Below, one piece after another: positions 7,867 through 8,485 of a DNA stretch of 10,342 nucleotides. Location: IMG/VR virus record IMGVR_UViG_2526164650_000011; one strand, given 5' to 3'. The position numbers were made by a program, and so were the translations under genes. Source of the DNA: a virus (taxonomy: Duplodnaviria; Heunggongvirae; Uroviricota; Caudoviricetes). Numbering within the stretch: position 1 is the first letter of the stretch; the number at the start of each line of letters is the position of its first letter. The notes beneath the pieces are model-generated. The model was given only the letters and a program-made list of their open reading frames with translations, had not been told where the DNA came from and ran no database searches.

Positions 7867-7890
7867 TTTTGTCAGATGTGAGTAAACTCC

Positions 7891-8226
7891 TTATGGACTT
7901 TGTTGTTTTAGTCCATAAGGGCATATTTGCAGAGTGCAACGGTTATTAAAGCATTCATTCAATACGTTATCTGTATTTGTAGGGCATTCCTGGCTGTTTT
8001 TGATTAAATTCCAGAATGTTTTATTGAATGGTACTACGTTGTAAATGGTTACAGGTAGCACTTTGTTATTGAGCATGATGCCTGTGTGAGTCAGTGTAAA
8101 TATACTTTCAGGAGGTAAGAAAGCATCCGATTGATACCAGATTATTAATTTTATTTTACTCCATATGACTGAAAAAGATATTCCGCATGATGGCTGGATA
8201 ACTGTATCAATCACAATCCACTTCAT
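7891..8226 (-). CDS. Hypothetical protein (111 aa, five Cys), antisense to the phage late operon
   Basis: ATG at 8226 is preceded on the minus strand by AAGGA with 6-nt spacing. The 3' end of the ORF forms an 11-bp hairpin (7889-7920). A TATACT -10-like hexamer lies upstream (plus-strand 8267-8272). No family recognised. Confidence 0.45.
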
Positions 8227-8485
8227 TTAGTTTCCTTGTTTATGCCTTGCTGGTGATGTTCTGAAAAGTATAAATGATATTTTTGAATTAAACCATAGAA
8301 CAGAATTATTTTTCTGATGTTGTTTATTGTTTATTTAAATGCAGGGTGGTTTATATCTCGTCTTGTAGTTTATCCATGCATATCTGCTTGATAATCAGGT
8401 TTTTATTTAAGGTATGGTTTTGTGTTTTTTCTGTATTACATGTCAGGTATTTTAAAGAATTATTTTTCAGATGTTGGAAAGAACC

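Follow-up and report, generated by a model that had tools for sequence, protein, structure and literature searches.

The prophage neighbourhood

The window, by which we mean the whole stretch of 10,342 nucleotides analysed here, holds on its minus strand an open reading frame of 111 codons at 7891-8226. Both the list of open reading frames and a reading of the sequence itself place its ATG at 8226-8224 and its TAA at 7893-7891. We annotate this frame as the coding sequence of iraL, which encodes an RssB anti-adaptor of the IraM/IraL family. On the plus strand, Q (5771-6592; PF03589 in Pfam) is followed directly after its stop codon (6592) by a pR'-like promoter at 6598-6625, which reads TTGATT-16-TAAAAT with TG, and then by a strong plus-strand terminator call at 6673-6692. 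The promoter and terminator (6598-6692) probably yield a short pR'-tR' transcript. In Stx phages, the analogous pR'-tR' RNA, StxS, activates rpoS. A weak, sub-threshold Rfam match to 'Trp_leader' was also observed across the same region.

Two phage tRNA genes (6737-6812 and 6903-6979, plus strand) lie between Q and iraL. One carries the anticodon CAT and is called Met by ARAGORN and tRNA-Ile in RefSeq relatives, while the other is a tRNA-Arg (TCT). Between the tRNA genes and the next feature are a 117-amino-acid frame at 7090-7443, which falls in phrog_2873 and has no Pfam or NCBIfam family, and a small DUF3927-type frame at 7406-7540, both on the plus strand. The next feature is the prophage small RNA STnc100 (7676-7865, plus strand; Rfam RF02076, 124 bits against a gathering score of 47), which is convergent with iraL. 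Downstream of the iraL slot the plus strand resumes with a DUF1737 gene (8471-8674) and a P21-type holin gene. The original prediction had described the minus-strand frame as convergent with a Q-dependent late operon, and Q, the pR'-like promoter, the DUF1737 gene and the holin do all lie on the plus strand; iraL sits antisense within the Q-dependent late unit of a lambdoid prophage.

The order of Q, tRNAs and STnc100, then iraL on the minus strand, then DUF1737 and holin recurs in CFT073, E. coli 042, JJ1886 and phage vB_EcoS-640R1, and in CFT073 the match extends to the DUF3927 frame. Relatives of IraL at 73-76% amino acid identity are found in Stx phages, likewise antisense, and examples include the 'iraM' of Stx2_EH1910 and protein P0005 in GCA_039832115.1. 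These genes occupy the slot between a GC-hairpin terminator and DUF1737/nanS-p, upstream of the holin. They differ from the window gene in lying directly downstream of stxAB (immediately after stxB) rather than of STnc100, and in that the hairpin at the 3' end of the window gene is degraded or absent in them. The main text of the paper in which iraL was named (PMC4045071) contains neither 'terminator' nor 'hairpin' and uses 'phage' only once, for the e14 prophage. The location of iraL inside a Q-dependent late unit, and the use of the same slot by Stx phages, extend that account.

The prophage in the window is already crippled. Two copies of IS600 lie in inverted orientation at 310-1233 and 9143-10342, the right-hand copy truncating the holin at 9143, and IS911 (1829-3077) splits relE, leaving N-terminal codons from 1756 and a C-terminal part that ends at 3295. 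Positions 1-294 resemble what we take to be the end of an IS1 transposase. This load of insertion sequences suggests a Shigella-type genome. Upstream of Q, relB, a hokD-like frame, Rem, a DUF968/YdfU-like protein and RusA (1517-1756, 3367-3522, 3740-3991 and 4338-5756) were noted, and the backbone in this part is of the Qin type. The closest public contig, AKMV01000024.1 (GCA_000268085.1), shares with the window 99.4% identity and the junction between holin and IS600. Its relE is without IS911, and it runs on into ydfJ-ydfI-ydfH-ydfG-dcp-like genes. Judged from the ydfJ-side flank of a related contig (L006), the host prophage lies at a Qin-type site. The window prophage differs in this respect, and in its disruption by IS600 and IS911, from the potB prophage island that carries iraL in CFT073.

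Identity and function of iraL

The original prediction had left the identity of the protein to homology and structure searches, and these point to one family. The window protein shows 100% amino acid identity to WP_000871291.1 of CFT073, named IraL by Hryckowian et al. (2014, mBio; PMC4045071) and carrying the locus tag c1429 (PMC12890032). WP_000871291.1 is annotated as IraM, and RefSeq labels the window protein an IraM anti-adapter too. With the NCBIfam model for IraM (NF007393) the protein reaches 162 bits, above the cutoff of 121, over residues 1-110 of 111, while the crystallised fragment of IraM in the PDB (8twd_A) aligns end-to-end over IraL residues 1-78 with E = 9e-32. An IraM/PmrD-like beta-barrel fold is accordingly predicted for the window protein from its sequence. 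The DNA is almost as close to CFT073 as the protein, with about 99% identity over 7660-8480, and the -10 hexamer, mapped start site, Shine-Dalgarno sequence, 3' hairpin and downstream GC-rich terminator are all shared.

The original prediction had allowed for a non-conserved chance frame in low-GC DNA. With 7700-8480 as megablast query, 2636 of 5426 complete E. coli genomes contain the region, where the frame is annotated as 'anti-adapter protein IraM', and copies of either the iraL or the iraM type are present in 4758 of the 5426. By nucleotide identity to the window frame these copies fall into classes at 95% or above (about 1400 records), about 78% and about 71%, the last being the K-12 iraM type. 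Pairwise dN/dS between types (window IraL, K-12 IraM and the Stx2a-phage variant) is 0.15-0.17; the frame is therefore under purifying selection. Together, this conservation and the dN/dS values exclude a chance reading of 7891-8226. The antisense frame is iraL, a paralogue of K-12 iraM that is carried on a prophage, and a real gene that was already named, mapped and functionally characterised in 2014.

K-12 IraM (YcgW, b1160), the anti-adaptor of Mg2+ starvation whose structure with RssB is 8TWD, shares with IraL its family, its RssB target and 62% of its amino acids; the Stx2a-phage variant is 73% identical to the window protein. [quoted passage not shown] The two genes differ in promoter region and in genomic context, K-12 iraM lying next to e14. 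K-12 IraM is also shorter (107 residues), is without the QQSP tail and the hairpin of iraL, and its gene has its own canonical terminator. In two-hybrid assays both domains of RssB interacted with IraM but only the N-terminal one with IraL (PMC4045071); an earlier two-hybrid result, cited in the 2023 structure paper, had IraM interacting with the C-terminal domain only (PMC10844676). Unlike IraM with its Mg2+-starvation role, IraL acts in unstressed log phase (PMC4045071).

The fold of IraM resembles that of PmrD, the polymyxin resistance connector protein of family PF11183 (PMC10844676). Either protein binds a response regulator at its receiver domain. Nearly all of the IraL homologues collected here (P0001-P0020) carry a precomputed PF11183 assignment with the PmrD label, which disagrees with our local Pfam-A scan, where the window IraL matched no family at E <= 1. 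Filing the window protein as a PmrD was rejected, since the target of PmrD is PmrA and not RssB and the local scan is null. In PHROGs, IraL falls in phrog_4407, labelled 'unknown function', a membership that shows the family to be phage-borne and nothing beyond this.

The function of the identical protein has been established by others. Deletion of iraL lowers sigma-S in log phase in both CFT073 and Shigella sonnei. [quoted passage not shown] IraL and RssB co-purify, and the N-terminal domain is the only part of RssB bound by IraL in the two-hybrid system (PMC4045071). The gene is expressed by the CFT073 lysogen in ordinary, unstressed log-phase growth and is enriched in UPEC and Shigella (PMC4045071). 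RssB binding and sigma-S stabilisation have thus been shown for the same amino acid sequence and would, by analogy, extend to the window protein; the window copy is presumably expressed.

Some detail may be added from the IraM structure. IraM uses I4, I6, W22, K26 and I42 to bind the receiver domain of RssB on its alpha4-beta5-alpha5 face, while two further residue clusters touch the C-terminal domain and the linker (PMC10844676). When the window protein was aligned to these published contacts, all five receiver-domain residues were identical, and the IraL substitutions T13S, L75I, H63N and I64V fell within the clusters that touch the C-terminal domain and linker. This pattern would fit binding restricted to the N-terminal domain. 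By extrapolation from the crystal structure of IraM with RssB, IraL would contact RssB on the same alpha4-beta5-alpha5 face. Residues 81-111 (7891-7986, minus strand) form a tail in which C81, C92, C97 and C102, spaced C-x10-C-x4-C-x4-C, are invariant together with P82, I101, P103 and G105 in 14 relatives of IraL and IraM, down to 54% identity. The C-terminal tail of IraM has been called less conserved and flexible, and was removed for crystallisation (PMC10844676). The four cysteines may constitute a metal or disulfide motif.

We hold with high confidence that the frame is iraL, read from its own promoter, and that its product is an RssB anti-adaptor which raises sigma-S in the growing lysogen. 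The proposed sequence of events is as follows. iraL would be transcribed from a sigma-70-type promoter of its own, antisense to the phage late operon, and the 111-residue product would fold as an IraM/PmrD-like beta-barrel. This protein would bind the N-terminal receiver domain of RssB, the ClpXP adaptor, on its alpha4-beta5-alpha5 face. RssB so blocked would no longer deliver sigma-S (RpoS) to ClpXP, and growing cells with the prophage would contain more sigma-S. The value of these observations is primarily one of annotation, in that an AT-rich antisense frame in a degraded, Shigella-like prophage is explained as a host-physiology gene that raises RpoS.

Promoter alleles and expression of the window copy

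The translation and transcription signals proposed for the frame in the original prediction are present in the sequence. A Shine-Dalgarno sequence AAGGA (8233-8237, minus strand) is separated from the ATG by the six nucleotides AACTAA, and is kept in CFT073 and phage 640R1. The 5' end of the CFT073 iraL mRNA has been mapped by 5'-RACE to ACATCACCAGCAAGGCATAAACAAGGAAACCA (PMC4045071), which matches the reverse complement of 8259-8228 at 31 of 32 bases. The start of iraL transcription in the window is therefore placed by homology at base 8259, giving a 5' untranslated region of 33 nt. The -10 hexamer that had been suggested from the sequence, TATACT (8267-8272, minus strand), lies 7 nt upstream of this base and hence at the proper position; it is invariant in CFT073, phage 640R1, JJ1886 and L006.

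The region further upstream is more variable. Alignment places the likely -35 region at 8287-8292 (minus strand), where CFT073 has TTTACA and the window TTTAAT: relative to CFT073 one C is deleted and the spacer, short as it already is, is reduced from 15 to 14 nt. That this hexamer is the -35 element of iraL is our reading of the aligned sequences, and a simple promoter scan called the iraL promoter in none of its allelic forms. JJ1886 carries the deletion as well, and a third allele, TTTATA, is seen in phage 640R1. Among complete E. coli genomes, 166 contain an exact 40-mer with the deletion and 285 the CFT073 type. We initially considered the deletion as a feature particular to the window or to Shigella; its presence in JJ1886 and in these genomes led us to reject this. 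The window differs from CFT073 at one further position, 8300, where it has T instead of C. This separate, window-specific SNP is the reason that the exact 71-mer used as a query is found in 0 of 1437 E. coli genomes. A -35 mutation has been noted in the iraL2 of JJ1886 and in other strains, its effect being given as unknown (PMC4045071); that a promoter allele with a deleted -35 base is common was not part of that account.

The expression level of the window copy, with this common allele, is consequently uncertain. It is conceivable that the coding sequence is intact while the copy is poorly expressed or silent through the one-nucleotide change in -35 and spacer, and that the gene is a passenger in a decaying prophage. 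The change of TTTACA with a 15-nt spacer into TTTAAT with a 14-nt spacer would favour such an interpretation, as would the cited statement on the -35-mutant iraL2 of JJ1886 and the degraded state of a prophage with its holin cut by IS600 and its relE split by IS911. Nevertheless, the frame is intact and identical to a functional protein, and the -10 hexamer, start region and Shine-Dalgarno sequence are unchanged. The deletion allele also accompanies an intact frame in the 166 or more complete genomes and in a second, related assembly, which is unlike the behaviour of a dead gene. Moreover, the gene is enriched in Shigella, with a functional copy in S. sonnei (PMC4045071). We therefore regard a weak or silent copy as rather unlikely, and continue to favour an iraL that is expressed from its own promoter.

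Two hairpins and the antisense arrangement

The most conspicuous structure at the 3' end of iraL is a perfect 11-bp hairpin with a 10-nt loop (7889-7920, minus strand), which covers the last codons (LKQQSP) and the stop. Its arms, 7889-7899 (CCTTATGGACT) and 7910-7920 (AGTCCATAAGG), are 100% complementary. The stem described in the original prediction is thus present as stated; the functional significance that its description implied fared less well. On one reading the hairpin is a functional element of the iraL RNA, acting as an intrinsic terminator or, at the 3' end, as a stabiliser on which the half-life of the mRNA depends. No perfect local inverted repeat in the window is longer, the hairpin as RNA has a folding energy of -17.3 kcal/mol (z = -5.2 relative to dinucleotide shuffles), and it hardly varies among about 1373 E. 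coli genomes. In most iraL copies it is even longer, a T at window position 7921 giving a 12-bp stem; the window, with the synonymous codon TGC instead of the TGT of CFT073, has a C here.

Several observations weigh against this reading. Firstly, the tail that follows the stem, AGUUUACUCAC, is without a U-run, and a terminator scan of 7500-8600 called no terminator on the minus strand. Secondly, invariance among the 1373 genomes is uninformative because all of these iraL copies are at least 95% identical in any case. Thirdly, in relatives at 89% and 76% protein identity the QQxP tail is kept while the arms are altered without compensation, and the corresponding sequences, when folded, are no more stable than shuffles (z = -0.2 and 0.0, respectively). 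Finally, neither K-12 iraM nor the 73% variant has the stem. A functional role for the 11-bp hairpin is accordingly unlikely in our estimation. From these comparisons we conclude that the stem is a lineage-specific palindrome of doubtful function; that so conspicuous a 3' hairpin is not maintained in evolution is a further point beyond those made in PMC4045071.

A second hairpin has a different history. On the plus strand at 7835-7856, the terminator scan found a GC-rich stem, CAGCCCCTC-TCCG-GAGGGGCTG, followed by a T-run, which coincides with the last helix of the Rfam match to STnc100. This is the terminator of STnc100, 35 nt past the stop of iraL. All four aligned IraL-like genes are followed by its core, AGCCCCTCCGGAGAGGGG, without variation, and they include two loci (L003 and L008) situated directly after stxB in Stx phages. 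[quoted passage not shown] The boundary between iraL and plus-strand transcription would therefore appear to be this downstream hairpin, and not the 11-bp one.

The original prediction had also classed the gene, on its arrangement, as a moron or defence gene expressed in lysogeny, and only the former description holds: iraL is a moron, expressed by CFT073 in log phase. That it might be an anti-phage defence, exclusion or toxin gene expressed from the lysogen is suggested by the generic position of an AT-rich antisense moron in a prophage (GC of 0.35 in the frame against 0.49 in the window), yet PADLOC matched 0 defence families to the window IraL at E <= 1, the identical protein has a different, demonstrated activity as an RssB anti-adaptor, and its CFT073 copy is expressed in log phase (PMC4045071), such that we give this possibility almost no credence.

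With iraL thus taken as a host-directed anti-adaptor gene, its antisense position may be considered further. Judged from the geometry only, mutual interference between late transcription and iraL expression is plausible, much as the original prediction proposed. A broader interpretation, which is speculative and which we think improbable, is that antisense iraL in the late operon is a conserved regulatory design, insulated by the GC-rich hairpin in the lysogen and shut off by Q-dependent readthrough upon induction. According to such a scheme, the invariant hairpin at 7835-7856 would shield iraL during lysogeny, and on induction Q-modified polymerase would pass it and silence iraL by convergent interference. 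This would couple the stabilisation of sigma-S to lysogeny, and the four invariant C-terminal cysteines could supply a metal or redox input. Since members of the family occupy the same slot directly after stxAB, the same logic would apply to Shiga-toxin phages, and these relatives would link RpoS control to induction of such phages. Among the IraL-like loci, a fifth (L009) has the gene order of L008.
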